A stretch of 64,000 bases of DNA, taken from positions 128,001 through 192,000 of the forward strand of contig CBDBLO010000002.1 in assembly GCA_965207075.1 (NCBI GenBank), read 5' to 3'. A program made the translations under genes and the position numbers. Positions within the stretch are counted from its first letter, which is position 1. The number at the start of each line of letters is the position of its first letter. The notes under the pieces were generated by a model. The model ran no database searches and was not told the DNA's origin. It saw only the letters and a list, made by a program, of their open reading frames with translations. This document shows, piece after piece, positions 23,025 to 49,421 of the stretch. This stretch comes from Nitrosopumilus sp. GTDB lineage: Archaea > Thermoproteota > Nitrososphaeria > Nitrososphaerales > Nitrosopumilaceae.

Positions 23025-24512
23025 CTAGGCGTCCGCATACATGGAGATCTCCCACGCGGTGGGGGTCTGTGCAAACGACGAGTACTCGCTGTACTTTAGG
23101 TCTGCGTACACCTCCAGAAAGTCCCTTGTAAACACGTCTACGAGGAACTCCCTGTCGCTTGCAAGCGAGTCGAGGGCGCCCTTCAGCGACGCGGGCAGCG
23201 AGCTGATGTTGTACTCGCGCTTCTTCTCGGGGGTGAGCCTGTATACGTTCTCCTCGACGGGGTCGCCCGGATCAAGCTTTCTCCGGATGCCGTCAAGCCC
23301 GGCCAGCAGCAGAGCCGCCTCCAGCAGGTAGATGTTGGCAGTCGGGTCCGGCACGCGGTACTCGATCCTCTTGCTCTTCTCCTGGTGCCGGGTGTACATG
23401 GGCACCCTCACGGCCGCGGAGCGGTTTCCCAGGCCCCAGCAGACGTTTACCGGCGCCTCAAAGCCCGGAACGAGCCGCTTGTACGAGTTCGTGGTGGGGT
23501 TTGTTATGGCGCAGAGCGCCTCTGCGTGATCCAGTATGCCCCCCACGTAGTACCTGCCGGCCTGGCTGATCTGTGCCACCAGGTCGTTCTCGTCGTACAT
23601 CTCGTTTGTCTGGCCGTTCCACAGGCTCTGGTGCGTGTGCATGGCCGACGCGTTGTCGCCGAATATCGGCTTTGGCATGAACGTCGCCACCCTGTTCTTG
23701 CGCTTTGCCTTTACCTTTACGAGGTTCTTCACCGTGACCACGTTGTCGGCCATCGGTATCATGCGCCCGTACCGGAGGTTGACCTCGCACTGGCCGGACG
23801 TCGCAACCTCGTGGTGCTCGGCCTCGACCTCTATGCCAAAGTGGCGGTACAGGTCCACGCAGACGTCCTTGCGGAACCCGTCAAGCGTGTCCTTTGGCTG
23901 CGAGGGATAGTACCCCTCGCGCACCTCGATGGCGGTGCTGACGTTTCCCTTGGACCAGGGCGACTCCTTGGACTCGATCGAGTACCCGGAGCCCGCGCCG
24001 GAGTGGGTCGCCGCGTACGGCGAGGGATACACGCTTATCGCGTCGAATATGAAGAACTCTATCTCTGGCCCCCAGCTCGTGTGCGTGAACCCGAGCTCGG
24101 ACAGCTTGCCCGCCGCCTTTTCGGCTATTCCGCGCGAGTCCCGGTTGTACCTGGCGTCCGGATGCGTGCTCCCGTCGTACAGGTCGCATATTATCCGCGC
24201 GTTCTTGCGGCCGTGGCCGCCGCCGCTGCCTGCGCCCATGTCATAGTCGTCGGGAAGTATGCGGAACGTGGACGGGTCGGGCAGCATCACCATGTCGGAC
24301 TTGTTGACCGTCTTGAACCCCACAATGGAGCTTCCGTCCAGCTTTTCAAGCCCGTTTACAAAGTTGTCCTCGTCTATCGCATAGGTGGGCATCCCCACAT
24401 TGTGCAGCTCGCCGAAGACGTCCACAAACCAAAAGTCGATAAAGGAGATGCCCTCGCTCTCGACGACATCAAGAACCCTGCCTGCCGTCATCTCCTCGCT
24501 TCCCGTGCTCAT
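23025..24512 (-). CDS. glnA: Glutamine synthetase type I (paralog 1)
   Basis: DGSSI, GPEIEFF, HHEVATSGQCE, TFMPKP, NSYKRLVPGFEAP, NRSA, RIEYRVPD. Confidence 0.96.
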   Translation of the reverse strand: MSTGSEEMTAGRVLDVVESEGISFIDFWFVDVFGELHNVGMPTYAIDEDNFVNGLEKLDGSSIVGFKTVNKSDMVMLPDPSTFRILPDDYDMGAGSGGGHGRKNARIICDLYDGSTHPDARYNRDSRGIAEKAAGKLSELGFTHTSWGPEIEFFIFDAISVYPSPYAATHSGAGSGYSIESKESPWSKGNVSTAIEVREGYYPSQPKDTLDGFRKDVCVDLYRHFGIEVEAEHHEVATSGQCEVNLRYGRMIPMADNVVTVKNLVKVKAKRKNRVATFMPKPIFGDNASAMHTHQSLWNGQTNEMYDENDLVAQISQAGRYYVGGILDHAEALCAITNPTTNSYKRLVPGFEAPVNVCWGLGNRSAAVRVPMYTRHQEKSKRIEYRVPDPTANIYLLEAALLLAGLDGIRRKLDPGDPVEENVYRLTPEKKREYNISSLPASLKGALDSLASDREFLVDVFTRDFLEVYADLKYSEYSSFAQTPTAWEISMYADA

Positions 24513-24732: not shown

Positions 24733-25908
24733 TCAGCCCTCGTCGCTAAGTATCGGCCCCATATGCCCAGATACAAGCGCGTGGTCGGCTATTACAAGCG
24801 AGACCAGCGCGTCGACTATGGGCGGGGCCCGCGGAACCGCGCACGGGTCGAACCGCCCCTTTATGGTCAGCGGGGCTTCGCTCATCGTGTCTACGTTAAC
24901 GGCAGGTTGTTCCTTCAACAGGGAGGGAACCGGCTTGAAGGCGACCCTCATCGTGATGGGCATGCCGTTTGATATCCCTCCCAGAATGCCGCCGGCGTTG
25001 TTTGTGCGCGTGATTATGCGCGGGCTGCCACCGCTGCCGTCATGGCCGTCTACGACCGCGTACGTGTCGTTGTTCTCTGAGCCGTAAAGCTTCGAGCCGG
25101 CAAAGCCGGAGCCAAACTCCACGCCCTTGACGGACGGAATCGAGAACATGGCCGAGCTTATGTCGGACTCGAGTGAGCCGAAGATAGGTTCGCCCAGTCC
25201 GACCGGCACCCCGGTCGTCACGGATTGTATGACCCCCCCGATCGAGTCGGCCCTCCTCTTTGTCTCCAATAGGGTTTCCCTCATGGCGGCGGCGGTGGTG
25301 GGATCGGGGCATCTTACGTCGTTGCCGTATATCGTGGCGTCGTCATATGTGACGGCGGACCCGCTACCACCGCGTGGCGCAGCTGCGGGCGTCTCCGCCG
25401 TGGCCGCCGGCATGGCAGTCGTGCCTATCGATTGAACGTACGAGCAGGTCTCGACACCAAGCGAGATCCTGAGAAGCTTTCGTGCAATTGCCCCCGCCAT
25501 CACATACGTGGCGGTGATCCTGCCAGAGAACCTGCCGCTGCCCCGGATATCGTTGAAGCGGCCGTACTTTACCATGGCCGTATAATCGGCGTGTCCGGGC
25601 CTGAGGTATGCCCTGAGAAGCTCATAGTGGGTCGAGGGCGTGTCCTGGTTCGCCATGAGCATTGCAATGGGCGCGCCGGTCGTGCGCCCGCGATACGTGC
25701 CAGAAATAATCTTGACGACGTCACCCTCCTTGCGCTGGGTATAGAGGATGCTCTGCCCGGGCCTGCGTCGGTCAAGCATGGGCTGGATGTCGGCCTCTGA
25801 GAGTTCTAGGCCTGCAGGGCAGCCGTCAAGCATGGCGCCGATCTGTTGCCCGTTGGCCTCGCCAAAGCTTGATAGCACGAGCCTCTGGCCCATGCTATTT
25901 CTGGACAT
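24733..25908 (-). CDS. aroC: Chorismate synthase
   Basis: RRRPGQS, RPGHAD, GRFSGRIT, SIPSVKGVEFG, NNAGGILGGISNG, KPVPS, GRFDPC. Confidence 0.95.
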   Translation of the reverse strand: MSRNSMGQRLVLSSFGEANGQQIGAMLDGCPAGLELSEADIQPMLDRRRPGQSILYTQRKEGDVVKIISGTYRGRTTGAPIAMLMANQDTPSTHYELLRAYLRPGHADYTAMVKYGRFNDIRGSGRFSGRITATYVMAGAIARKLLRISLGVETCSYVQSIGTTAMPAATAETPAAAPRGGSGSAVTYDDATIYGNDVRCPDPTTAAAMRETLLETKRRADSIGGVIQSVTTGVPVGLGEPIFGSLESDISSAMFSIPSVKGVEFGSGFAGSKLYGSENNDTYAVVDGHDGSGGSPRIITRTNNAGGILGGISNGMPITMRVAFKPVPSLLKEQPAVNVDTMSEAPLTIKGRFDPCAVPRAPPIVDALVSLVIADHALVSGHMGPILSDEG

Positions 25909-25952: not shown

Positions 25953-27379
25953 AATTCTGTTTCCTAATTGCACCAGTAGGCACCCGCCTGGCCGGGTGTT
26001 TTTTGCATGTTAGTCAGGTATTTTTCGCCTTGGGTGTTAAGTGTGCATGACACGATGTCCCACCGCACACAAATGATGGGACAAAGATGCCAGGCACAAG
26101 GCATACTTGCAGGGCATGGCTTTAAGCATGGCGCGGCGGCGCGGTCCGTCCGCAGAGGAGGGGACTGTCCGTGAGCAGGGCCGGGCGCGGCGCGGCTGCA
26201 AAGACTGACAACGAAAAGTACGTCAGGCGCGGCGCGGATCTGGTCATTGAATATGATCCGGAGTGGGAGGATGACGTAAGGCGCGCAAACGAGGGCAGGG
26301 TGGGCGCCCCGTACCAGTACGCGGACACGCTCATCATGCTGGCCGCCGGCATCAGGGTCGCGCAGGGGGTCCGGTACAGGCAGCTCCAGGGGATGGTCGG
26401 CAAGATGATAGGCAGGTCCAACGCGCCCGTGTTCAGCCAGCTGTGCAAGCGGATCAACGGGCTTGACACGGACATCCGCCGGGGCCCGGACGGGATGGTG
26501 ACGGTGTCGGACAGGAAGGGGCCGCGGGTGCTGGCGCTCGACGCGAGCGGGCTCAAGCAGCACAACAGGGGCGAATGGATGAGGGCCAAGTGGAAGGTGA
26601 GGCGGGGCTTTGTAAAGATGCACGTGCTGGTCGACACGGAGACCATGAAGGTACTCGCGCTGGAGGTCACCGACGACTCCGTGGGAGACCCGACCATGTT
26701 CGAGTCGCTGCTCGGACAGGTCGTGGACGCGGACGGCGCCAATGCGGAGGACGGCACGCGGCACGCGGAGCCGCCCGCCGCGCCCCGCTCCGACGGCGGC
26801 GGTCCGAGGTACGAAAACCTGCTCGCGTCCGGCGTCTCCCCGCTCGCGTCGTTCTTCCCGGGCGCCCCCCGGGACCGGACCGCGCCCGACCTCCTGCTCG
26901 GCGATGCCGCGTACGGCTCAAGAAAAAACATATCCGCGTGCGCGCGGGCCGGGGTGACACCGGGCATTGCGCACACCATCAACGTGACGGCGCGCGGCAA
27001 GGGATCCGGAGACGCGTGGGGCATGTCGGTAAGGGACCAGATGGGCGGAAGCCCCGACGCGACGCGCCTGGACCTGATGGGCAGGGAGCAGAAGAGGGAG
27101 AACCAGACGTACTGGAAGGCCCGCATAGGCTACGGCTTTCGCTGGCTCGTGGAGAGCGTGTTTTCGGCGTTCAAGCGCCTGTTCGGAGAGCACCTGTTGG
27201 CCCTCAAGTGGGAAAACATCGTGCAGGAGGTAAAACTCAAGGTGATCCAGTACAACAAGTGGAGGGACGAGTCGATAGTGCGGGAGGCGGGAGGCGGGAC
27301 GTCCTGATGGCATGACGCCCATGTCGCCGTCCGATAGGGACTCGGCAGGCATCCAGATGGCGAATTAGGAAACAAAGTT
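25953..27379 (+). mobile_element. IS5-family element, 1427 bp
   Basis: 17-bp imperfect TIRs AATTCTGTTTCCTAATT (25953-25969) / AATTAGGAAACAAAGTT (27363-27379); 8-bp TSD TCGCGCCG (25945-25952, 27380-27387). Confidence 0.9.
26171..27307 (+). CDS. IS5-family (IS903-like) DDE transposase
   Basis: LDASGLK...GEW...KMH.LVD, GDAAYG, GYGFRWLVESVFSAFKRLFG. Confidence 0.93.
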   Translation: MSRAGRGAAAKTDNEKYVRRGADLVIEYDPEWEDDVRRANEGRVGAPYQYADTLIMLAAGIRVAQGVRYRQLQGMVGKMIGRSNAPVFSQLCKRINGLDTDIRRGPDGMVTVSDRKGPRVLALDASGLKQHNRGEWMRAKWKVRRGFVKMHVLVDTETMKVLALEVTDDSVGDPTMFESLLGQVVDADGANAEDGTRHAEPPAAPRSDGGGPRYENLLASGVSPLASFFPGAPRDRTAPDLLLGDAAYGSRKNISACARAGVTPGIAHTINVTARGKGSGDAWGMSVRDQMGGSPDATRLDLMGREQKRENQTYWKARIGYGFRWLVESVFSAFKRLFGEHLLALKWENIVQEVKLKVIQYNKWRDESIVREAGGGTS

Positions 27380-27535: not shown

Positions 27536-28945
27536 TCAGCTTGCCTGCTTTGGGGGGTCTTGGCCCGAGCGCGTACTGCTATGCCCCGCCTGATGCTTTG
27601 CCGCCTTTATCGCGTCAAGCTCGTCCTCAAAGAAGAACCTAGAGCCCTCCACCGGCCTGAGGTCGTCAAGCCATATGGCGTCCTCGTCATATTTTGCAAA
27701 GAACGGGGTGTGCGCCCAGTCGGGGTTCCTTCCCTGCAGGAACCGGAGCACGAGCATCTTTTGGCCGCCTATCGTGGCGACGCCGGAAACCTGCACCTTG
27801 CCGGGCGTGGCCGACATGCTGGGGCCCCTGACCGTCCTTGCCAGCCCGCTGACTGACGAGTATGCCCTGCTGAATATCTCGTACGCCCTGACAAGCGGCA
27901 CGCCAAAGTAGTGCTGCGCGCCCGTGTCCCTGACCACGAACATGTAGTACGGAATGCATCCCATGCTGACCTGCTTGGTCCACATGCGCCCCCACATCTG
28001 CGCGTCGTCGTTTATGTGCGCAAGCAGAGGCGACTGCGTCCTTATCTGCGCGCCCGTGGCCCTGACCTTCTTGATGGCGGCCGCCACCGCGTCAGTCGAG
28101 AGCTCGTTGAGGTGGTTAAAGTGTGACATGAACGCAAGGTGCAGCCCGCTCTCGGTTATGCGGCGGAACACGTCGAGCATCTCCTCCGCGTCGGGATCCG
28201 TCAGGAACTTGTACGGCCAGTACGCGAGCGCCTTTGTGCCTATCCTGACGGTCTTGAGGTGCGGGAGCCTCGACTCTATTATGGCGTCCGCATACTTTGC
28301 AAATATGCGCGCCTTCATTATCATCGGGTCGCCGCCGGTAAACAAGATGTCGGTAATCTCGGGATGCTCCGACACGTACTGGACCAGCTGCTCGCCCTCC
28401 TTCATTGCAAACTTCATCTCGTCCATCCCGACGAACTGCGGCCACCTGAAGCAAAAGCTGCAGTACGCGTGGCAGGTCTGGCTCTGGCTTGGAAAGAAGA
28501 GGCAGGTCTCCTTGTACTTGTGCTGCATGCCGTACAGCTTTGTCCCGTCCCGGAGCGACGGGACGTTGAGCTCCATCTGTCCGGCCGGGTGCGGGTTGAG
28601 CTGCAGGCGTATCTCGTTTGCGACCCGCGCAATCTCTTCCTTGCCGGCTCCGCTGTTGAGCGTCGACTCCATCTTTGCATAGTGGTCCGGCTTTAGCATG
28701 CCCCTCTGCGGAAACGTCAGGACGAACATGGGGTCGTTTGGTATGTCGTCCCAGTCGATGAGCTGCTCCACCACGTAGTTGTTGGCCTTGAACGGCAGCA
28801 CGTTTCCGACCACCTCCATCTCAGACACCATCTGTTCCGGGACGGACTCGAGCTGCGGGAGGCTCCGAAAGTTGGCCAGCGTGTACGACTTGAGCGAGGG
28901 GGACGCGGATCCGTCGTCCCACACGGTCTGCTGAGCGGATGCCAT
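27536..28945 (-). CDS. KamA-family radical SAM/PLP 2,3-aminomutase (substrate probably not lysine)
   Basis: CHAYCSFCFR (CX3CX2C), HKY, LFTGGDP, HFNH, PYYMF, PGK (PLP Lys); ATG 28945 downstream of CTTTAACAT box. Confidence 0.9.
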   Translation of the reverse strand: MASAQQTVWDDGSASPSLKSYTLANFRSLPQLESVPEQMVSEMEVVGNVLPFKANNYVVEQLIDWDDIPNDPMFVLTFPQRGMLKPDHYAKMESTLNSGAGKEEIARVANEIRLQLNPHPAGQMELNVPSLRDGTKLYGMQHKYKETCLFFPSQSQTCHAYCSFCFRWPQFVGMDEMKFAMKEGEQLVQYVSEHPEITDILFTGGDPMIMKARIFAKYADAIIESRLPHLKTVRIGTKALAYWPYKFLTDPDAEEMLDVFRRITESGLHLAFMSHFNHLNELSTDAVAAAIKKVRATGAQIRTQSPLLAHINDDAQMWGRMWTKQVSMGCIPYYMFVVRDTGAQHYFGVPLVRAYEIFSRAYSSVSGLARTVRGPSMSATPGKVQVSGVATIGGQKMLVLRFLQGRNPDWAHTPFFAKYDEDAIWLDDLRPVEGSRFFFEDELDAIKAAKHQAGHSSTRSGQDPPKQAS

Positions 28946-29129
28946 TGTAGTTGGTACGCGCGTGCCATATGTTAAAGCTTTAGTTCGCGCGGCGCCCCCG
29001 ACGCTGGTCAGCCATACGGACGGGACGGACGCCGCCGCAGACAAACGATATTAACGCGGTTTGCAGGACTCTGTTGTTGACAGCGTGGATAGCAATGCAG
29101 CGGCAGGGCGGCAGGACCGGTGACGCGTA

Positions 29130-30881
29130 GTGGCGGGGGAGGAAGAGCTGTCGCAGCTCACTGCGGGCGAGCTGCAGGCCGTCCCGCAGCTGCTGGCGTC
29201 ATCAGAGGCCCTGCAGGTCGCGTTTGTCATACTGGCAGTAGGCATCATAAGCATCGTGATAGTATACAGAAAGTTCTCCTCCTGGGTGCGCTCGCAGAGG
29301 TTCTATTACGAGAGGCCGCACATCTCAAGGTTCCTGCGCAGCGTCATGCTCCCGTTCCTTGCCATCGCCCTGATCACCGCCGTCAACGTGTACGTGCAGG
29401 CCGGGATACTCACGGAGGAGGGAGGGGCCGCTGCAGAATCCGCAGCGGCCGGCGCCCTCACCGCAGGCGACGCGTTTGCAAAGATCCTCAACACGTTTAA
29501 CATACTCGTGATCGGGTACGCGGTCTCCCACCTGATTCCAATCATACTGACAAAGCACGAGCGCTACCTGCAGGAGAGGGGCGACTTTGAGCAGTGGTTT
29601 GAGATGCGCGGGTTCGCCGACGACGAGGACGGCCTCTTCCACAGGCTGTACAAGTGGATTCCCCCAAAGGACGCCCCGGAGGACATGGGCCAGGACGAGT
29701 ACGAGGCCATGCTGAAAACCGAGGAGGGCGTAAAAAGGCTGGAGCAGTTCCGGACTGCGCAGGGAAACCCGATAGGCGGGTACGAGAAGAGGGTCAAGAG
29801 CCCGTTTGAGGACTGGAAGAGGTCCGAGCGCGCAAAGTACTCCAAGTACTACGGCGGCTGCATAAGCGGCAACAACGAGACGGGGCTCAAGCTGAAGCCC
29901 GGGGCAAAGCCCGAGGAGATATACCCGATCGACACGTGGAGGGAGGAGAAGCGCCTCAACGGGTACGAGAAGGTGGTCCCCAGCGCGCGCCCCCCGGGAT
30001 ACGCAGAGAAGAAGAGGCAGGGGCTTCCAAAGTCCATAAAGCAGCTCCTTCCAATAGGGCTCTTTGCGGCCACCATACTGGGCGTGCTTGGGTGGTGGGG
30101 CGTCGACCTGTTTGTGGTGGCCACCGCGACCGGCGGATTCTCCATAGGCCTCGGGCTGGCGCTGCAGGAGACCATGAAGAACTACTTTGCATACCTGAGG
30201 ATCAGAAAGGACAAGATCTTCGTGGAGGGCGACAGGATACAGCTGGAGTCCGGGTACAACGGCTACGTGCACAAGATAACGCCGCTTGTCACGTATGTCA
30301 TCGACGCGCTGTACGAGTCGGTGGCCATAATCCCCACAAGCGACTTGGTCACCGCGCAGATCATAAACTACACAAAGGAGAACAAGCTGGTGCCCGCCGT
30401 CGTAAACGTGGGGGTGTCATACCTGAACAACCCAAAGCAGGTCGCGGCCATACTGGTAAAGGTCGGAAAGCGCGCCATGACTGAGATCGTAGACTCAAAA
30501 GGCAGGCACCTCGTAAGGCAGGCGCGCTGCCCGTACCTAAACGAGAACAGGCCGAGCTGCGGGTGTGACAGGGACCTGCACGTAGAGCTGACGCAGCCCG
30601 TGGTCAGGTTTGACAACTTTAACGACTCGTCGCTTGACTTTTCGATGTGGGTCTACGTCCGAAACTATGGCTCACAGTTCAAGACGAAGACCGACATGCG
30701 GATCATGATATATGAAGAGTTTAAAAAGTATGACATAAGGATCCCGTGGCCCATCAGGACCATATACCAGGGAGACGAAAAGCGGGAGGGCGCCGAGATC
30801 GGGTCTCTCGACAAGGAGAGGCAGGGCGTCATCGACGAGCACGGCATAGGTGACCTGCGGCGCGAAGGGGACGAAGAATAG
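29130..30881 (+). CDS. MscS-family mechanosensitive channel with large internal insertion
   Basis: GLGLALQETMKNYFA, GDRIQL, IIPTS, IINYT, VGVSY, FNDSSLDF, IRIPWP. Confidence 0.92.
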   Translation: MAGEEELSQLTAGELQAVPQLLASSEALQVAFVILAVGIISIVIVYRKFSSWVRSQRFYYERPHISRFLRSVMLPFLAIALITAVNVYVQAGILTEEGGAAAESAAAGALTAGDAFAKILNTFNILVIGYAVSHLIPIILTKHERYLQERGDFEQWFEMRGFADDEDGLFHRLYKWIPPKDAPEDMGQDEYEAMLKTEEGVKRLEQFRTAQGNPIGGYEKRVKSPFEDWKRSERAKYSKYYGGCISGNNETGLKLKPGAKPEEIYPIDTWREEKRLNGYEKVVPSARPPGYAEKKRQGLPKSIKQLLPIGLFAATILGVLGWWGVDLFVVATATGGFSIGLGLALQETMKNYFAYLRIRKDKIFVEGDRIQLESGYNGYVHKITPLVTYVIDALYESVAIIPTSDLVTAQIINYTKENKLVPAVVNVGVSYLNNPKQVAAILVKVGKRAMTEIVDSKGRHLVRQARCPYLNENRPSCGCDRDLHVELTQPVVRFDNFNDSSLDFSMWVYVRNYGSQFKTKTDMRIMIYEEFKKYDIRIPWPIRTIYQGDEKREGAEIGSLDKERQGVIDEHGIGDLRREGDEE

Positions 30882-31111
30882 GCGGCGGCGCCAACGGGTT
30901 GTACGCAAGACGGAAGAGACGGGGCGCCCGGCATTTTTGGCGCCGCAGTAACCCGCGCCTTCATCTGCGCCCGCCCGCGCGCAATCAATTCTCAAAAACG
31001 CCGTAAATTGTCCCGGCATGTGTTCATTATTCACGCCTGCACGAGTTTTTTCTTCAACTACGCAGAACGTCTACTGAATGGTTTTTTAACAAGTCACGGC
31101 CGACAAGGTTG

Positions 31112-33301
31112 ATGAAAGTAGCTATCGTGTATAACAAGAAGCGCATAGACGACCAAGACGTGATCAACGTCTTCGGCATGACCACAAAGGAGCACTACTC
31201 ATACAAGACGGTCGAGAAGGTCGCAAAGGCGCTCGAAAAGGGGGGGCACTCCGTGAAGATCATAGAGGGCGGAATGAACTTTATAGACGAGATGAAGGAC
31301 TTTATGCCGCGCGTCGTGGCGGGCGAGAGGCCGGGCATGGTATTCAACATGGCGTACGGCATACAGGGACGCAACCGATACACACACGTTCCTGCCATGC
31401 TCGAGATGCTCGGGATACCGTACGTGGGATCGGGGCCCGAGGCCCACGCGGTAGTGCAGGACAAGGTAATGACAAAACTGGTGCTGCAGAAGAACAACAT
31501 ACCCACGCCCGGATTCTGGGTCTTCACCAGCCCGGACGACGAGTTCGAGGACCTCGCGTTCCCGGTCATCGTAAAGCCGAAGATGGAGTCCACGTCCATG
31601 GGGATGGAGGTCGTCCGCGACAGGGACAGCCTGCGCAGGGCGGTAAGGGGCCAGATGGAGAAGTACTCGCAGGAGATACTGGTGGAGCAGTTCATACCCG
31701 GAAGGGAGTTCGCGGTAGGCCTACTGGGAAACGGCACGCACGTCGAGGTACTGCCGATAGTCGAGATGGATCTCGGGGGCGATCCGGACAGGATCCAGAC
31801 CATAACCGAAAAGAAGTCGGACCCGCTTGACAAGGTGTGCCCAGCCGAACTCACCGAGGAACAGGCGGCCCACATAAAGAAGATCTGCCTTGCGGCGTTC
31901 GGGAAGCTCGGGCTGAACGACTTTACAAGGGTGGATCTGCGCATGTCCCAGGACGGGAAGGTCTACATACTGGAGCTCAACTCGATGGCAAGCCTCGGGC
32001 AGACGGGCTCGTACTATACGGCGGCCAAGGCGGCCGGCTACACCTACGACACGCTGATCAACAAGATTTTTGAGGTGGCCTCTATGCGGTACTTTGGGGA
32101 CATACACCCCCACCCCGAACCGGGCAAAAAGTCGTCCGCCCAGTCGCTGCGCTCTATGATCCGGAGCTACCTCCGGAGCCACTACACCACAAACGAGAAG
32201 CTGCTGGAGCAGCTGGTAACCATAAACTCGAGCGTCTACAATCTGGAGGACGTGAACAAGCTCGGCCGCATGATCGCCAAGAGGCTTGAGCACCTCGGGT
32301 TCACGACGCGCACGCACCAGATGTTCGACGTGGGGAACATGATATACTGCGCCAACCACGACGGAGCGGAGAACGACGTCCTGCTGCTGAGCCACCTTGA
32401 CACTTGGTACACGAACCAAGACTTTGGCGCGTTCCACAAGGTGGGCAGCAAGCTGTACGGATCGGGCATAGCGGAGAGCAAGGGGGGGCTCGTCGTGATG
32501 CTCTCCGCGCTCCAGGCCCTGAGGTTCGCGCGCAGGCTGAAGAGGGTCAGGTGCGGCATACTGCTGATCAGCGACGACTCCGTAGGCGGAAGATTCAGCG
32601 AGAAGCTGGTCCGCGATACGGCGGAATCCTCAAGGTACATACTGGACCTGAAATGGGGCATGGAGGACGGATCGGTTGCGACCTCCTGTTCGGGCATCAC
32701 CAACTACCACATAGACATGCTTCATGTACGGAGCCCGGGAGAGGCCATAAAGGACGTCATACCGGAGATGTGCAGGAAGGTCGTGGACTGGGAGAAGGCA
32801 GCCTTGGCCCACGGCGACGCAAGGGTCAGCATATCGGAATTCAAGGCGCGCACGTCGTTAGGCTCATCACCGGACTACGGGAGCCTCACCCTCACCTCCA
32901 GATACGTCACGAAGCAGCAGGGAAGGGATATCGATGCGGATCTGCGCAAGATCGCCAAGAAGAAGGGCAAGGTCAAGCTCGATATCCACATAATACAGCA
33001 GACCCAGCAGGATCCGGTGGTGGTAACCGAGGGCGGGCGCGGCTTCTACAAGATAGTCGACGGGCTGGCAAGAGAGGCCGAGATCAAGATCTCCCCAGCC
33101 CACAGGTATGCACCGTCCAGCCTGGGGGACGTGTCTGACGACGGCCACAAACCCATGCTGGGCTCGATGGGGCCGATAGGGATAGACTGCAGGACGCCAA
33201 ACGAGCACGTCATAAGGGACAGCGTGATAGACAGGGCCCTGCTGCTGGCGCTGACCATGAACGAGATCTCAACGGGCAAGGGAAGGACGGATTGGACATA
33301 G
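31112..33301 (+). CDS. D-Ala-D-Ala-ligase-like ATP-grasp enzyme fused to an M20-peptidase-like domain
   Basis: VFNMAYG, GIPYVGS, QDK, VKPKMESTSMG, EQFIPGREF, RVDLR, LELN; C-terminal SHLDT, GIAESKGG, GPIG...PNEH. Confidence 0.92.
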   Translation: MKVAIVYNKKRIDDQDVINVFGMTTKEHYSYKTVEKVAKALEKGGHSVKIIEGGMNFIDEMKDFMPRVVAGERPGMVFNMAYGIQGRNRYTHVPAMLEMLGIPYVGSGPEAHAVVQDKVMTKLVLQKNNIPTPGFWVFTSPDDEFEDLAFPVIVKPKMESTSMGMEVVRDRDSLRRAVRGQMEKYSQEILVEQFIPGREFAVGLLGNGTHVEVLPIVEMDLGGDPDRIQTITEKKSDPLDKVCPAELTEEQAAHIKKICLAAFGKLGLNDFTRVDLRMSQDGKVYILELNSMASLGQTGSYYTAAKAAGYTYDTLINKIFEVASMRYFGDIHPHPEPGKKSSAQSLRSMIRSYLRSHYTTNEKLLEQLVTINSSVYNLEDVNKLGRMIAKRLEHLGFTTRTHQMFDVGNMIYCANHDGAENDVLLLSHLDTWYTNQDFGAFHKVGSKLYGSGIAESKGGLVVMLSALQALRFARRLKRVRCGILLISDDSVGGRFSEKLVRDTAESSRYILDLKWGMEDGSVATSCSGITNYHIDMLHVRSPGEAIKDVIPEMCRKVVDWEKAALAHGDARVSISEFKARTSLGSSPDYGSLTLTSRYVTKQQGRDIDADLRKIAKKKGKVKLDIHIIQQTQQDPVVVTEGGRGFYKIVDGLAREAEIKISPAHRYAPSSLGDVSDDGHKPMLGSMGPIGIDCRTPNEHVIRDSVIDRALLLALTMNEISTGKGRTDWT

Positions 33302-35001
33302 AGCAGATAGAGTCGTCGTTTCGTCCCTCACGCAGCGGGAAGGCGGCGTACGCCGCAAACGGCATGGTCGCGTCCGCGTTTCCCGACGCGACCGGGGCCG
33401 GGGTCGAGATGCTCAGGAAGGGCGGAAACGCCGTCGACGCGGCGTGCGCAACGGCGTTCGCGCTGGGCGTCTGCGAGCCGCAGGCATCCGGCATAGGCGG
33501 GCAGTCTATGTGCATAATGCGCGTCAACGGAAAGAACATAGCAGTCGACGGCTCAAGCCGGGCCCCCTCGCTGGCACACTCGTCCATATACGCGAGGAGA
33601 AAGCGCCGGCGGCTCCTCGGCTACAGGGCGACCACGGTCCCGAGCACGGTAGCCGTCCTAGGCAAGATGCATGAGCGCTACGGCCGGCTCGAGTGGCAGA
33701 AGATCCTGGCCCCCGCCATACGGATCGCCAAGAGGGGATACCGCATCACCATGCTGCAACACAGTATCCAGAAGGAGAAGCTTGATGAGTTTCTAAGCGT
33801 AGACTCGGGGTCGGGCGCGCGATACTTTCTGAAGGACGGCCAAGTGCCGTACGAGGTGGGGGACAGATTCGTCCAGGACGATTTGGCGCACACCTTGGAG
33901 GCCATCTCGGAGAGCGGCTACCTGAGCTTCTACCACGGCAGTATCGCAAAACAGATAGACGCCGACATGAGGGCAAACGGCGGGCTGATCCGCGAGGAGG
34001 ACCTGGCGTTTGTCCCCGAACCCATCGAGCGCATTCCAATCATGCGAAAGTACCGGGGCGTCTCCGTGGTGACCATGCCCCCGCCCGCAGCAGGCAGCAC
34101 CCTGCTGCTCACGTTGATGATGCTCAACCACCTTCCGTCCAAGTTCCTGCACGGCGACAGGCCCAGCTCCTACCACTTTATGGCCGAGGCGTTCAGAAAG
34201 GCATTCCTGCACAGGGTGCTGCGGCCGTTCAACCCGCACACCTACGACCAGATGCAGAGCAGGCACCACCTGCAACGCACGTTTGCAAGGCAGATGGCGG
34301 ACTCCATACACAACGCCATGGACGCCACGCTGCCAATGATAGATCCAATATTTGGCGGGGAGGGGGACACCACCCACTTCTCCGTCATGGACAGCGGTCC
34401 GCTCAGGTACCACCCCGGGCTCGTTGAAAAGGAGGGGGAAACCACCCATCTCTCCGTCATGGACAGCGAGGGCAACGCCGTGGGCATCACGCAGTCCATC
34501 GAACTGGCATACGGCTCAAAGGCGGCGGCCGAGGGGCTGGGGTTCCTATACAACGACTACATATCGGCGTTCGAGTTCTCGACCCCGACCAACCCGTTCT
34601 ACATCAGGCCGAACGGGATACCTTGGACTTCAGTCTCCCCCGCGCTGATCTTTTATGACGGGCAGCTCTGGATGGTGGTCGGAAGCCCGGGCAGCCAGAG
34701 GATATTCTCCACCGTTACCCAGTTTCTCACCGGCATGATCGACGGAGACATGCCGATGGACAGGGCGATGGACAGGCCCAGGTTCCACTGCACCATCGGG
34801 GGCACGATCAGCGTGGAAGAGGGCGGGTTTGACGCGGCAGTCAGGCGGTACCTTGAGAAGATGGGCTACAAGCTCACCGACAGGGAGAGGTACTCGTTCT
34901 ATCACGGGGCCATCCACGCGGCCATGAGGCTCCAGACGCGGGCCGGCTTCCAAGGCGTAGCGGAGGTCAGGCGCGACGGCACCGCGGGTGGCATGAATTG
35001 A
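33292..35001 (+). CDS. ggt: Gamma-glutamyltransferase-family Ntn hydrolase (no signal peptide)
   Basis: GGNAVDAA, EPQASGIGG, VP, PPP, TTHLSVMDSEGNAV, GSPG, PRFH; TTG start overlaps upstream stop. Confidence 0.92.
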   Translation: MDIEQIESSFRPSRSGKAAYAANGMVASAFPDATGAGVEMLRKGGNAVDAACATAFALGVCEPQASGIGGQSMCIMRVNGKNIAVDGSSRAPSLAHSSIYARRKRRRLLGYRATTVPSTVAVLGKMHERYGRLEWQKILAPAIRIAKRGYRITMLQHSIQKEKLDEFLSVDSGSGARYFLKDGQVPYEVGDRFVQDDLAHTLEAISESGYLSFYHGSIAKQIDADMRANGGLIREEDLAFVPEPIERIPIMRKYRGVSVVTMPPPAAGSTLLLTLMMLNHLPSKFLHGDRPSSYHFMAEAFRKAFLHRVLRPFNPHTYDQMQSRHHLQRTFARQMADSIHNAMDATLPMIDPIFGGEGDTTHFSVMDSGPLRYHPGLVEKEGETTHLSVMDSEGNAVGITQSIELAYGSKAAAEGLGFLYNDYISAFEFSTPTNPFYIRPNGIPWTSVSPALIFYDGQLWMVVGSPGSQRIFSTVTQFLTGMIDGDMPMDRAMDRPRFHCTIGGTISVEEGGFDAAVRRYLEKMGYKLTDRERYSFYHGAIHAAMRLQTRAGFQGVAEVRRDGTAGGMN

Positions 35002-35807
35002 CCGGACTTCCCGTCCTGATCTCCATCCCGCACGGCGGCACGGAGGTGCCAGAGGAGCTTGCCGGGCGCGTCCGCATTACAGAATCCGCGCAGTTTGACG
35101 ACTCGGATGCGTTCACGGCCGAGATCTACGACATCGGGGAATCGGCCCTCCACGTTATCAAGGCCGAGATTGCAAGGGCGTACGTCGACCTGAACAGGTC
35201 AAGGGAGCAGCTGCCGCCAGACGTCCCGGACGGGCTGATCAAGAGCGTCACCTGCTACAACGAACCCGTCTACATGAGCGGTATGGAGCCGGGCCCGCAG
35301 CTTACAGAGCGGCTCATCAAAAGGTACTATGATCCGTACTATGGCGCGATAGAGAGGGCGTGCGCGGATCCGCAGAACGGGCTGCGGCTGTGCCTTGACT
35401 GCCACTCCATGGCGCCCACCGCGCCCCCGGTCAGCGGCAATAGCAGCAGTGAGGGCGGCAGTGGCAATACGGCCCGACCGCTGTTCTGCCTCTCAAACCG
35501 CAACGGCAAGACGTGTCCCGATGATCAGATGGAGGTGCTTGCACGCTGCATGTCAGAGTCCTTTGAAATACCCAGGGACCGCATACTCCTGAACCACCCG
35601 TTTCAGGGCGGACACATAACAGAATGGTTTGGGGCAAGGCACGATCCCGCCATCCCATGGGTGCAGATTGAGATGAACCGTGCTCTGTATCTGGATGAGC
35701 AGTGGTTTGACCGCGCCTCCATGAAAATGACCGACAGGAAGCGGCTTGCCGAGCTCAATCGCATGTTCAGGGACGCGCTGGCCGGGTTCTTTGACTGCCG
35801 CACGTGA
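34998..35807 (+). CDS. N-formylglutamate amidohydrolase (HutG-like)
   Basis: SIPHGG, ARAYVDLNR, DCHSM, NHPFQGG, QIEMNRALY; 4-nt overlap with ggt stop. Confidence 0.92.
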   Translation: MTGLPVLISIPHGGTEVPEELAGRVRITESAQFDDSDAFTAEIYDIGESALHVIKAEIARAYVDLNRSREQLPPDVPDGLIKSVTCYNEPVYMSGMEPGPQLTERLIKRYYDPYYGAIERACADPQNGLRLCLDCHSMAPTAPPVSGNSSSEGGSGNTARPLFCLSNRNGKTCPDDQMEVLARCMSESFEIPRDRILLNHPFQGGHITEWFGARHDPAIPWVQIEMNRALYLDEQWFDRASMKMTDRKRLAELNRMFRDALAGFFDCRT

Positions 35808-36193
35808 CGGCCTGCGGGCGCCAAGCCAGCCGCGGGTGGATCTTTCCCGGACTCTCGCGCCGGTGCCGGAAACGTAGCCCGGAAAGCTGTATGCCGTGCG
35901 GCGTCCGGGCCCCGGCACGAGGATCCGTCTTTGGGGCACGGTATTGGTGGGCTGTTGCAGACGGTCCCTTGCGCAGATGCTTTCTGCCGCATCCCTCAGA
36001 CGTGAGGCCTACAAGCCGACTCCTGCCAGGCCCTAGAATCCGGACGGATTGCCGTTCGCCAAAGGGAGACAAGATGCCGGCTTCTCGTCCGTATCAGGAG
36101 CGTTCGGTGCGGCTCATGCCAGACTGTGACCAACCGCATTTTCCAGAGCTGTTACTCTCAAGATTTAAGATGCGGTGTGGGATACGGCCGGAC

Positions 36194-37111
36194 ATGGGAC
36201 AGAAGAGGGGGGCGTGCGTGTTATCGGGCGGCTCCTCGGACGGCCTTGCCAGGAGCATATCGGAAAAGATCGGCGCCAAGCTGATCACCACGGAGGTGCG
36301 CGTGTTTTCCGACGGGGAGAGCAAGATGAGGCTCGGGGGCAGAACCTCCGGATACGACAGGGCGGTCATAGTGCAGTCGCTCCACCCGCCCGTGGACACC
36401 AACCTGTTCAGGGCGCTCTGCCTCATATCAAGGATAAGCGAGGACACCAAGGATGTAACCGCGGTGATCCCGTACGTCGGGTATGCAAGGCAGGATGCCG
36501 AGTTCCTTCCGGGTGAGATCATATCCGCAAAGGTGCTCGGCAGGATGCTCAGAAGCGCCGGCGCAGCCAGGATCGTGGTAGTCGACATACACAGTGAGAG
36601 GGGGCTTGCGCTGCTCGGCACGCGGAACACGACCAACGTGTCCGCCGTACCCGCACTGGCGCGGCACTTTGACGGCGTCAGGCTGGAGAGGCCCATTGCG
36701 GTGTCCCCCGACAAGGGGGGCGCAAGGAGGGCGGAACGGTTCGCGTCGGAGATGGGGTGCGACCTGCTGGTGCTCGAAAAGTCAAGGGACAGGAGGACGG
36801 GGGCCGTGAGCATAAAGACCAAGAAGGCGGGGGCCGTGGGGGGCAGGGACGCCATCATAATTGACGACATGATAAGCACCGGAGGAAGCGTTGTCAAGGC
36901 CGCGGAGTTCCTAAAGAAGCAGGGCTGCGGGCGCATATTTGCCGCATGCACGCACGCCCTGCTCGCGGGCGGCGCCAAATCCAGGATAAGGAGGGCGGGG
37001 ATCAGCAAGATAGTCTGCGCCAACACCATGCCTGCCGGCAAGGGAGTCGCATCAGTCGACGTATCAGACGAGATTGCCAGGGTCCTGAAGAGGAGACGAC
37101 AGCGGCGGTAA
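36194..37111 (+). CDS. prs: Ribose-phosphate pyrophosphokinase
   Basis: FSDGE, PYVGYARQD, VDIHS, SPDKGG, IIDDMISTGGS; ATG 36194 after GATTTAAG. Confidence 0.95.
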   Translation: MGQKRGACVLSGGSSDGLARSISEKIGAKLITTEVRVFSDGESKMRLGGRTSGYDRAVIVQSLHPPVDTNLFRALCLISRISEDTKDVTAVIPYVGYARQDAEFLPGEIISAKVLGRMLRSAGAARIVVVDIHSERGLALLGTRNTTNVSAVPALARHFDGVRLERPIAVSPDKGGARRAERFASEMGCDLLVLEKSRDRRTGAVSIKTKKAGAVGGRDAIIIDDMISTGGSVVKAAEFLKKQGCGRIFAACTHALLAGGAKSRIRRAGISKIVCANTMPAGKGVASVDVSDEIARVLKRRRQRR

Positions 37112-47960: not shown

Positions 47961-49421
47961 ATGCCATACAGAGTCAGTCACGGTAAGGCGATACAGGTTC
48001 AGTTTTCACCCGACGAGGTCTTCTCAAGGATACAGCACGAGAACATCCAGTTTATCGACCTGCAGTTTACAGGACTGACCGGGCACTTCCACCACACCAC
48101 CATATCGGCCGCCACCTTCACGCCGGAGCAGATGAGGGACGGCCTGCCAAAGCTCGACGGCTCGTCGATAATAGGGTTCACCAGCATAGACGACTCGGAC
48201 CTGCTGCTAAAGCCGGACCCCAACACGTTTGCCATAATCCCGTGGATGACGGAGAACAAGACGGCGCGCCTGCTGTGCGACGTATACTGGGGGGGCGACC
48301 GCGGCAGGCTCTCGCGTGACCCCAGGGGGATCGCGCAAAAGGCCGAGGAGTACATCAAGTCCCAGGGCTTTGACTACTCAACGTGGGGCCCCGAGGTAGA
48401 GTTCTTTGTCTTTGACAAGGTGCACTGGGACGTGCTCACGCCATACAAGGGCCAGTCATACGCCATAGAGTCCAAGGAGGCCCCGTGGAGCCAGGAGGGT
48501 GACGGGTATCCGATGGGGCTCCAAGAGGGGTACTATCCGAGCACCCCGTCTGACACGCTTACGCCATACCGGAACGAGTGCGTAAACATACTGCAGAACA
48601 ACTTCGGGATACTGTGCGACAACCACCACCACGAGGTCGCGACGGCGGGCCAGTGCGAGATCGACATCAGGTACGACCACCTGACGAACGCGGCCGACGC
48701 CGCGCAGTCATACAAGTACGTAATCAGGAACATAGCGCAAAAGTACGGCAAGGTGGCCACCATGATGCCCAAGCCCATTGCGATGGACTCGGGCAGCGGA
48801 ATGCACGTCAACGTCAGCCTCTGGAAGAAGGACCGGAACATGTTCTACGACTCGGGCAGCGAGGACGAGCTGAGCCAGACGGCGCGCTACTTTTGCGGCG
48901 GCGTCATAGAGCACGCAAAGGCGCTCTCCGCCATCTGCAACCCCACCACGAACTCGTACCACAGGCTCGTGCCCGGCTACGAGGCGCCCGCATATATCGC
49001 GTGGAGTTCTGGAAACCGTTCGGCAATAGTCAGGGTCCCGAGGCACCTGACGGGCAAGCAGTACGCCCACCTAAAGCGCCTGGAGTTCAGGGCGCCCGAT
49101 CCGTCCTCAAACCCGTACCTGGTGTTCGCCGCCATAACGGCGGCCGGCATGGACGGCGTCAAGAAGAAGATGGAGCCTGGCGACCAGATACACGACGACA
49201 TATTCAAGATGACGCGCTCAGACAGGGCAAAGCGCGGAATCGATGTGTTGCCAAAGAGCCTGGGCGACGCGCTCAACGAGCTTGAGAGCGACAGAAAGTT
49301 CCTGCTGTCCATATACACGGACGACGTGATAGACAAGGTGATAGAGCTGGAGAGGAGGGACCAGCGCGAGATATCGATCAGGCCGCACCCGCACGAGTTT
49401 TACCTGTACTTTGACGTCTAG
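47961..49421 (+). CDS. glnA: Glutamine synthetase type I (paralog 2)
   Basis: DGSSI, RDPR, GPEVEFF, HHEVATAGQCE, MPKP, GSGMH, NSYHRLVPGYEAP, RLEFRAPD; ATG 47961. Confidence 0.96.
   Translation: MPYRVSHGKAIQVQFSPDEVFSRIQHENIQFIDLQFTGLTGHFHHTTISAATFTPEQMRDGLPKLDGSSIIGFTSIDDSDLLLKPDPNTFAIIPWMTENKTARLLCDVYWGGDRGRLSRDPRGIAQKAEEYIKSQGFDYSTWGPEVEFFVFDKVHWDVLTPYKGQSYAIESKEAPWSQEGDGYPMGLQEGYYPSTPSDTLTPYRNECVNILQNNFGILCDNHHHEVATAGQCEIDIRYDHLTNAADAAQSYKYVIRNIAQKYGKVATMMPKPIAMDSGSGMHVNVSLWKKDRNMFYDSGSEDELSQTARYFCGGVIEHAKALSAICNPTTNSYHRLVPGYEAPAYIAWSSGNRSAIVRVPRHLTGKQYAHLKRLEFRAPDPSSNPYLVFAAITAAGMDGVKKKMEPGDQIHDDIFKMTRSDRAKRGIDVLPKSLGDALNELESDRKFLLSIYTDDVIDKVIELERRDQREISIRPHPHEFYLYFDV

Follow-up and report, generated by a model that had tools for sequence, protein, structure and literature searches.

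Lysine 2,3-aminomutase (LAM; KamA of Clostridium subterminale, PDB 2A5H; AblA, model TIGR03820) is the structural reference for the gene analyzed here. This gene is predicted to encode a KamA-like aminomutase of the radical S-adenosylmethionine (SAM) and pyridoxal phosphate (PLP) type, and lies at positions 27536..28945 on the minus strand of a 64,000-nucleotide stretch of a Nitrosopumilus sp. genome (contig CBDBLO010000002.1), the whole of which is called the window below. Two aspartic acid residues of LAM (D293 and D330) reportedly bind the epsilon-amine of lysine, a role ascribed to the structure paper on the enzyme. A second described system is glutamate 2,3-aminomutase (Eam, TIGR04368; the Clostridioides difficile enzyme). 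Lysine and asparagine reportedly occupy the two specificity sites of glutamate 2,3-aminomutase, in work ascribed to Ruzicka and Frey in 2007, and a methanogen glutamate 2,3-aminomutase is said, going by the title of a cited work of Tunckanat et al. from 2022, to be connected with osmolyte use in archaea.

A third comparison comes from the biosynthesis of the macrolactam incednine. In a review of macrolactams (PMC11284099), beta-glutamate is an intermediate to the 3-aminobutyrate starter, IdnL3 is a PLP-dependent decarboxylase of beta-glutamate, and the radical SAM protein IdnL4 is 'likely responsible' for the 2,3-shift; idnL4 was disrupted as a confirmation of its part in the making of 3-aminobutyrate, and IdnL4 activity was not seen in vitro. 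Beta-glutamate is also prominent in the relatives of the organism studied here: of the metabolites identified in Nitrosopumilus maritimus, beta-glutamic acid was the most abundant, at 730 mM, and the available part of that report does not name the gene (Heal et al., PMC8269262). Law et al. (2021), in the part available, merely cite this measurement. No paper linking an aminomutase to beta-glutamate in these archaea was found in the literature searched, which misses most subscription journals.

The gene of the window is the best candidate for the enzyme making beta-glutamate in marine ammonia-oxidizing archaea (AOA). On the sequence and context evidence given below, it probably encodes a third type of glutamate 2,3-aminomutase, producing the osmolyte beta-glutamate within a module formed with an MscS-like channel and a second glutamine synthetase (GS-2). 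New in this work are a three-gene co-occurrence table, an independent check of a macrolactam cassette, an orthologue in Methanococcoides and a side-by-side comparison of the protein with AblA and two Lys/Asn types.

Gene, predicted fold and catalytic motifs

The gene encodes 469 amino acids, from an ATG at 28945 to a stop codon at 27536-27538. The minus-strand open reading frame as found spans 27536-29044, and initiation at the TTG at 29044, which would add 33 residues, is unlikely; homologues of 446-454 amino acids align from residue 4-5 of the 469-residue form, so ATG 28945 is the likely start. Contigs from RNA libraries of two studies overlay the frame at 27552-28952, with none beyond 28952. 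They were 95-99% alike, and therefore come from close relatives; they give a hint of expression and prove neither transcription nor its level.

The AlphaFold2 model of the protein (pLDDT 92.5, pTM 0.91) had 2A5H as its top structural match by Foldseek (E 2e-20), and VIA-align matched it to 2a5h_B with Z 35.6 and a root mean square deviation of 3.3 Å over 334 aligned residues, the next entry reaching Z 14.6. Identity to LAM in the structural alignments was about 19-22%. The protein is, by this model, predicted to have the LAM fold. 2A5H was also its only sequence match in the PDB (phmmer E 2.6e-19; E 1.3e-35 with a profile of 43 members).

The motif CHAYCSFC (28451..28474, minus strand), with Cys158, Cys162 and Cys165 as putative ligands of the [4Fe-4S]/SAM cluster, aligned to CSMYCRHCTR of 2A5H. 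It is followed by Phe and by Arg167, which the phmmer alignment against 2A5H places opposite Arg134 of LAM; the GGD, HFNHxxE and NDD motifs align with LAM in the same comparison. Fold, CxxxCxxC, the following Arg, these three motifs and the lysine at the PLP position are features common to both proteins, and a radical 1,2-amino shift would be expected for the Nitrosopumilus protein too, by homology with LAM. The two proteins differ at their ends. The N-terminal part of the aminomutase is about 30 residues longer than that of LAM, and its C-terminal part is different: AblA carries there a cysteine cluster (CDRNCEKC), whereas no cysteine cluster was present in the aminomutase and no match to the Pfam domain LAM_C was obtained for this part. 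Pfam gave only weak radical-SAM signals for the protein. The gene is the sole KamA-family gene of the source genome.

Substrate-site residues

Two peptides, both present on the minus strand where the initial annotation had placed them, carry the residues that correspond to the lysine-binding sites of LAM. The first, PYYMFVVRDTG (residues 332-342, 27920..27952), has Arg339 at the position of LAM Asp293, followed by Asp340. The second, RTVRGPSMSATPGK (residues 370-383, 27797..27838), has Ser376 at the position of LAM Asp330 and the putative PLP lysine, Lys383. The corresponding minus-strand codons are at 27929-27931 (R339), 27926-27928 (D340), 27818-27820 (S376) and 27797-27799 (K383), and those of R339, D340, G342 and T380-K383 were verified by hand.

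The register of the first site was the same in three alignments, in agreement with the initial annotation, which had seen Arg at D293 by eye. phmmer set PYYMFVVRD opposite PYYIYQCD of 2A5H, whose D is chain residue 293; the profile of 43 family members against 2A5H kept the same register, with Arg339 at Asp293; and MAFFT L-INS-i on 62 sequences, four canonical AblA among them, put Arg339 in the Asp293 column. In the structural model, a strand at residues 331-337 is followed by a loop. Neither HMMER alignment extends past LAM residue 322/323, and the positions of the second site and of the PLP lysine come from MAFFT alone; there, no gap separates the conserved SG from the lysine, Ser376 shares a column with the Asp of V(I/V)DAPxGGGK, and Lys383 one with the PLP lysine of the AblA GGGK. 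The proposed Ser at the D330 site was thereby recovered by one method, an ungapped alignment. A phmmer search of the C-terminal 111 residues against the PDB returned only chance matches (Csy1, DsrR; E >= 0.7) and no alignment to LAM. According to these alignments, both lysine-binding Asp of LAM are replaced in the aminomutase, by Arg339 and Ser376.

Two further details hold less well than the initial annotation supposed. The PLP loop had been described as shortened, but the stretch from the conserved SG to the lysine counts 18 residues in the aminomutase and in AblA alike; the composition of the loop differs (MSATPGK vs. APxGGGK) and its length is the same. The second site had been used in the inference of the substrate; in the window clade it is occupied by S, V, C, I or M, and because of this variability it is no specificity determinant. 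Arg at the first site was conserved throughout the subclade of the window protein in the MAFFT alignment. CxxxCxxCxRW, PYYMF[VA]VRDTG and RTVRGPSMSATPGK were each kept in 80/80 related archaeal loci, so that none of these motifs is a matter of chance.

Family models and phylogenetic placement

The aminomutase matched all six NCBIfam models of the KamA family, in each case below the curated cut-off. It reached 128.4 bits with the family model TIGR00238 (cut-off 199.2), under which 18 relatives likewise remained, 99.9 bits with TIGR03820 for AblA (cut-off 525.4; a true AblA, L219, scored 805.6), 77.4 bits with TIGR04368 for Eam (cut-off 650) and 100 bits with the EpmB-type model TIGR03821. Features of the KamA family present in the protein are CxxxCxxC, the LAM fold and, by one alignment method, the lysine at the PLP position; those absent are a score at the family cut-off, the two Asp and the cut-off of AblA, and the Lys/Asn and the cut-off of Eam. 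Homologues are named 'lysine 2,3-aminomutase' or 'KamA family' in their sources. The expectation that such a protein would be automatically annotated as a lysine aminomutase was correct, since close homologues are so named, yet the score lies far below the AblA cut-off. In a protein atlas, the nearest clusters were unnamed 'KamA family' clusters, mostly bacterial.

The comparison sequences were taken from genomes reached through published primers and family searches, and fell into four types that can be told apart by the residues at the first site, the second site and the PLP position. Canonical AblA (L218, L219, L278 and L279) showed D/D/K. A Methanobacteria type of 385-416 amino acids (L224 and relatives) showed K/N/K, with TIGR04368 as best equivalog (497 bits). 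A long Methanococci type of about 600 amino acids (L280, L281, L260 and L272) had Lys first, Phe in the second-site column with Asn adjoining it, and Lys at the PLP position; its best equivalog was also TIGR04368 (184-259 bits), and it exceeded the TIGR00238 cut-off. The window protein and its subclade (L221, L282 and others) showed R, then S, V, C, I or M, then K, and were below all cut-offs. The Lys/Asn pair described for glutamate aminomutases found indirect support: it was present as such in the Methanobacteria type; in the long Methanococci type its Lys was recovered and its Asn was displaced by one position, with Phe in the column. The long Methanococci protein is presumably the methanogen enzyme published in 2022. 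It coexists with AblA in four Methanococci genomes. A 629-aa gene of this long Lys-type was also seen in a non-ammonia-oxidizing genome of the class to which Nitrosopumilus belongs (L097:641-2527, G014).

A quick maximum-likelihood tree grouped the window family as a clade of 48 rows (100 in the approximate likelihood ratio test, SH-aLRT) on a long stem, with AblA (99), the Methanobacteria type (97) and the long Methanococci type (100) as separate groups. Long branches meet at a single row of this tree, a second KamA-like gene of Nitrosopumilus, which is not used in the argument. One Nitrosopumilus genome carries, at L096:1356-2522 (G060), another and different KamA-family gene, which codes for 389 aa and has none of Asp, Lys and Arg at its first site. 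Scores, site residues and tree together place the aminomutase in a divergent sister clade of the KamA family, as a member of neither the AblA nor the Eam equivalog. With Eam and the methanogen enzyme it would share the proposed reaction and the osmolyte use in archaea, whereas the Eam-like proteins of methanogens carry Lys and Asn (or Phe with Asn next) where the aminomutase has Arg and Ser, and belong to another clade.

A conserved module with an MscS-like channel and GS-2

Genomic context was compared across 80 loci from named genomes by tblastn with the genes of the window, and co-occurrence in a sample of 161 Nitrosopumilaceae genomes. A gene for an MscS-like mechanosensitive channel of 583 aa (29130..30881, plus strand; Pfam MS_channel_2nd and MS_channel_3rd) stands head to head with the aminomutase gene, and was adjacent and divergent in 78/80 loci. 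GS-2 (23025..24512, minus strand; assigned by Pfam) was found directly downstream, on the same strand as the aminomutase, in 62/80 loci. The source genome has two glutamine synthetase (GS) genes, both in the window; the other one is located around 47961-49421 on the plus strand, and GS-2 is 40% identical to it.

The aminomutase was present in 116 of the 161 genomes and this MscS type in 97, with both in 96 and neither in 44. The single genome with MscS alone was 91% complete and had GS-2 at a contig end. In the three genera that were partly positive, the same genomes held aminomutase and channel (9/19, 3/5 and 8/9). The GS-2 type (E <= 1e-170) occurred in 87 of the 161 genomes, 86 of them with the aminomutase by hand count, and the listed genomes without the aminomutase had only a GS of about 46% identity. 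Among the rows counted are single ones from genomes that bear an unpublished flag (G420, G452, G410, G115 and G456). Related genomes are not independent, and one deletion removes adjacent genes together; the pattern therefore shows a module and is not to be read as a statistic. The aminomutase, the MscS-like channel and GS-2 have been gained and lost together, as a module.

Other genes surround these three. In the window, the aminomutase is parted from GS-2 by an IS element with a DDE transposase (26171..27307, plus strand; Pfam DDE_Tnp_1), which was present in 0/80 related loci and lies outside the module, and by the chorismate synthase gene aroC (24733-25908, minus strand). Beyond the MscS-like gene, a gene resembling ribose-phosphate pyrophosphokinase (PRS-like; 35804-37111, plus strand) was conserved in 70/80 loci; its product is extended at the N-terminus by about 135 residues. 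A block at 31109-35807 (plus strand), between the MscS-like and PRS-like genes, comprises a 730-aa fusion of a D-Ala-D-Ala-ligase-like ATP-grasp domain and an M20 peptidase domain, a gamma-glutamyltranspeptidase (GGT) and a gene of the N-formylglutamate amidohydrolase (FGase) family. The ATP-grasp gene recurred in just 1/80 related loci (L015), so that the block has the look of an insertion specific to this lineage, which may serve a gamma-glutamyl peptide. Near the aminomutase, no Rfam family reached its gathering score in the window, nor did one in the Methanococcoides locus described below.

Relation to an incednine-type macrolactam cassette

The window clade has a single functional anchor, of the IdnL4 type, which is genetic and indirect. 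By tblastn, full-length relatives of the aminomutase were found on plasmids of Streptomyces, Amycolatopsis, Nocardia, Rhodococcus and Mycetohabitans. The gene on the plasmid of Streptomyces sp. NBC_00334 was 48% identical to the aminomutase over 392 residues (E 6e-147) and had the same RDTG and RTVRGPxMSTTPGK motifs (RTVRGPxMSxTPGK in both), and the two proteins stood in the same 21-row group of the tree (support 89, not starred). The gene order in NBC_00334 was type I polyketide synthase (PKS), type I PKS, S33 peptidase, aminomutase-like gene, PLP enzyme of the class I/II aminotransferase fold, AMP-binding enzyme and type I PKS. The cassette is called incednine-type on account of this gene order, which resembles that of the cassette described in PMC11284099; the name 'IdnL4' did not occur among the source names in the aminomutase homologue listings.

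The likeness of the IdnL4-type gene to the aminomutase extends to identity and both motifs. The contexts differ, as the bacterial product feeds a polyketide starter unit, whereas the archaeal neighbors are a channel and a GS. No beta-glutamate decarboxylase, adenylating enzyme or PKS was present in the window, the 80 archaeal loci having been compared with the window's own genes. The PKS cassette was found in one of six plasmid contexts inspected, the other five being different. On a plasmid of Amycolatopsis sp. AA4 (L284), a relative is accompanied by a Glu/Leu/Phe/Val dehydrogenase, CoA ester lyases, MaoC dehydratases, a CoA transferase and a PLP aminotransferase, a context that looks like a catabolic or CoA-linked beta-amino-acid pathway.

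Distribution of the aminomutase

Close homologues were 76-100% identical to the aminomutase, and the named ones belonged to Nitrosopumilus or Nitrosopumilaceae. In a class-level sample of 201 genomes (127 of its own family and 74 of 13 other families), the gene was detected in 103 of the 127 own-family genomes, including all 52 of its genus, and the 74 genomes of the other families gave no strong match and two weak ones. It was present in two of three Nitrosopelagicus genomes, in Baltic Nitrosopumilus, in one lake-labeled Nitrosarchaeum metagenome-assembled genome (MAG) and in one Nitrosotalea-labeled MAG, a genome that bears an unpublished flag. Two Baikal Nitrosarchaeum MAGs, strain BD3 and another lake MAG gave no match, the completeness of MAGs being uncertain, nor did four Nitrososphaera/Nitrososphaeraceae MAGs. 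A strict marine/freshwater split was considered and found no support, given the lake-labeled Nitrosarchaeum and the Nitrosotalea-labeled MAG that carry the gene.

Outside these archaea, the family comprised 325 clusters at E <= 1e-30 in the 50% library, and at least 8000 of 8000 scored candidates were significant in one homologue search and at least 7582 of 8000 in another. Named bacterial members belonged to Bacteroidota, Gemmatimonadota, Gammaproteobacteria, Armatimonadota and Acidobacteriota, and plasmids of actinomycetes and of the Burkholderia group carry family members. Two members from GC-rich bacteria, P0179 and P0219, have lost the cysteines of CxxxCxxC; P0219 also lacks the lysine at the PLP position, which P0179 keeps, and both are probably non-catalytic relatives.

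In Methanococcoides seepicolus (L221 / L288:8741-10102, G203), an orthologue with RDTG and GPSMSTDPGK exists besides a canonical AblA. It stands alone among housekeeping genes (IleRS, PUA, ProRS), a context that is uninformative. In Methanococci no protein of the window clade was found: the 29 KamA-family matches there were either AblA or of the long type, each with a score above the TIGR00238 cut-off.

Among bacterial metagenome loci of the clade, Rfam elements were found in none of the 60 scanned (of 80). Among the 98 flanking open reading frames of 49 bacterial loci, the commonest neighbors were MFS_1 at 12 loci, PlsX at about 10 (probably one lineage), SDR at 4, MscS at 1 and glutamate dehydrogenase (GDH) at 1, and a class I/II aminotransferase directly downstream at 4; these loci, too, include related organisms that are not independent. 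The bacterial neighbors share no common theme.

Discussion

The proposal that the substrate is acidic, and likely glutamate, gained indirect support from four sides: the conserved Arg at the first site, the 48% identity to an incednine-type gene, the linkage with MscS and GS-2, and the concentration of beta-glutamate in N. maritimus. In the mechanism that we favor, the aminomutase would convert L-glutamate to beta-glutamate (3-aminoglutarate) by a radical-SAM, PLP-dependent 2,3-shift, in which Arg339 would hold the gamma-carboxylate of the substrate, a task that falls to the Lys/Asn pair in both known types of glutamate-aminomutase-like protein. Beta-glutamate would accumulate as the main organic osmolyte of marine AOA, and the MscS-like channel, likely the valve of the module, would release it on osmotic down-shock. 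GS-2 could amidate beta-glutamate or manage the glutamate pool.

A broader version of this proposal can be put forward only tentatively, and with somewhat less than even confidence. The clade may represent a third, independently specialized lineage of glutamate 2,3-aminomutase, in which a single Arg takes the place of Lys/Asn, which operates in an obligate aerobe and is part of a three-gene module with a dedicated valve and a GS paralogue that may act on beta-glutamate; the clade as a whole, mislabeled as lysine aminomutase, may then supply beta-glutamate widely, across many phyla of bacteria and in certain methanogens.

Several observations weigh against a glutamate 2,3-aminomutase dedicated to osmolyte production. 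The substrate is not readable from the sequence. A shift of one residue would put Asp340 at the Asp293 position, which the three alignments make unlikely. A subclade of 14 rows within the window family (SH-aLRT 100) has lost the first-site Arg; its substrate is probably a different one. The aminomutase occurs without this MscS type in 20 of the 116 positive genomes, 12 of them in one genus; the contexts of its relatives are heterogeneous, with CoA-pathway genes, nonribosomal peptide synthetase (NRPS)-like genes, MFS transporters, or the gene alone; and its distribution is mostly, not strictly, marine. The host organisms live aerobically, and sensitivity to oxygen is usual among radical-SAM aminomutases. 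KamA-family matches were absent from 16 of 40 Methanococci genomes, including Methanothermococcus sp. Ax23 (G354); since the classical beta-glutamate producer belongs to the genus Methanothermococcus, an aminomutase-free route may exist. According to the available part of the 2005 review by Roberts, early nuclear magnetic resonance (NMR) work ruled out a glutamate aminomutase in methanogens and a glutaconyl-CoA route was proposed, so that beta-glutamate can apparently be produced by other means.

Some of these observations would equally suit a 2,3-aminomutase that acts on a different amino acid, one whose distal group is a carboxylate or otherwise polar (2-aminoadipate, glutamine or similar), with the beta-glutamate of AOA made by a different route. 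Arg339 shows only that the distal group of the substrate is non-cationic, and the variable second site, the very different contexts of the relatives, the proposed non-aminomutase route and the many Methanococci genomes without a KamA-family gene all leave room for such an enzyme. We nevertheless regard it as rather unlikely: the available portions of the sources report no other beta-amino acid that reaches a high level in AOA, the nearest context backed by genetics is one of beta-glutamate supply, and GS, a glutamate enzyme, is linked to the gene in most of the archaeal loci. Aspartate is excluded on chemical grounds, because a 2,3-shift on aspartate returns aspartate.

Supply of a beta-amino acid for the modification of a protein or cofactor, as by EpmB, or for a small secondary metabolite, with no free osmolyte and an incidental linkage to MscS and GS, appears improbable. 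The KamA family does include EpmB-type functions, whose model the aminomutase matches at 100 bits, relatives are found in PKS/NRPS clusters, and the Methanococcoides orthologue lies amid housekeeping genes. Such a role accords poorly with the joint gain and loss of the gene with a mechanosensitive channel across genera, with the lack of a ligase or carrier gene beside the aminomutase in the archaeal loci as compared with the window genes, and with the very high conservation (76-100% identity), which fits a core metabolic enzyme. The lysine 2,3-aminomutase activity implied by the source names and by the LAM fold is hardly credible, given Arg and Ser at both lysine-binding Asp positions, 99.9 bits against the AblA cut-off of 525.4, a clade separate from the four AblA sequences, no acetyltransferase among the neighbor genes in the window (with which alone the 80 loci were compared), and a canonical AblA carried besides the window type in Methanococcoides.

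AOA rank with the ocean's most abundant cells, and since N. maritimus holds beta-glutamate at 730 mM, this compound makes up a considerable store of marine carbon and nitrogen. Having a named candidate gene makes its origin directly testable. If the gene does encode a glutamate 2,3-aminomutase, a systematic mis-annotation of thousands of proteins would be corrected and a marker gene for beta-glutamate production in metagenomes would become available; the family would also provide a second mode of glutamate recognition in the KamA fold and possibly an oxygen-tolerant enzyme, of interest for biocatalysis.

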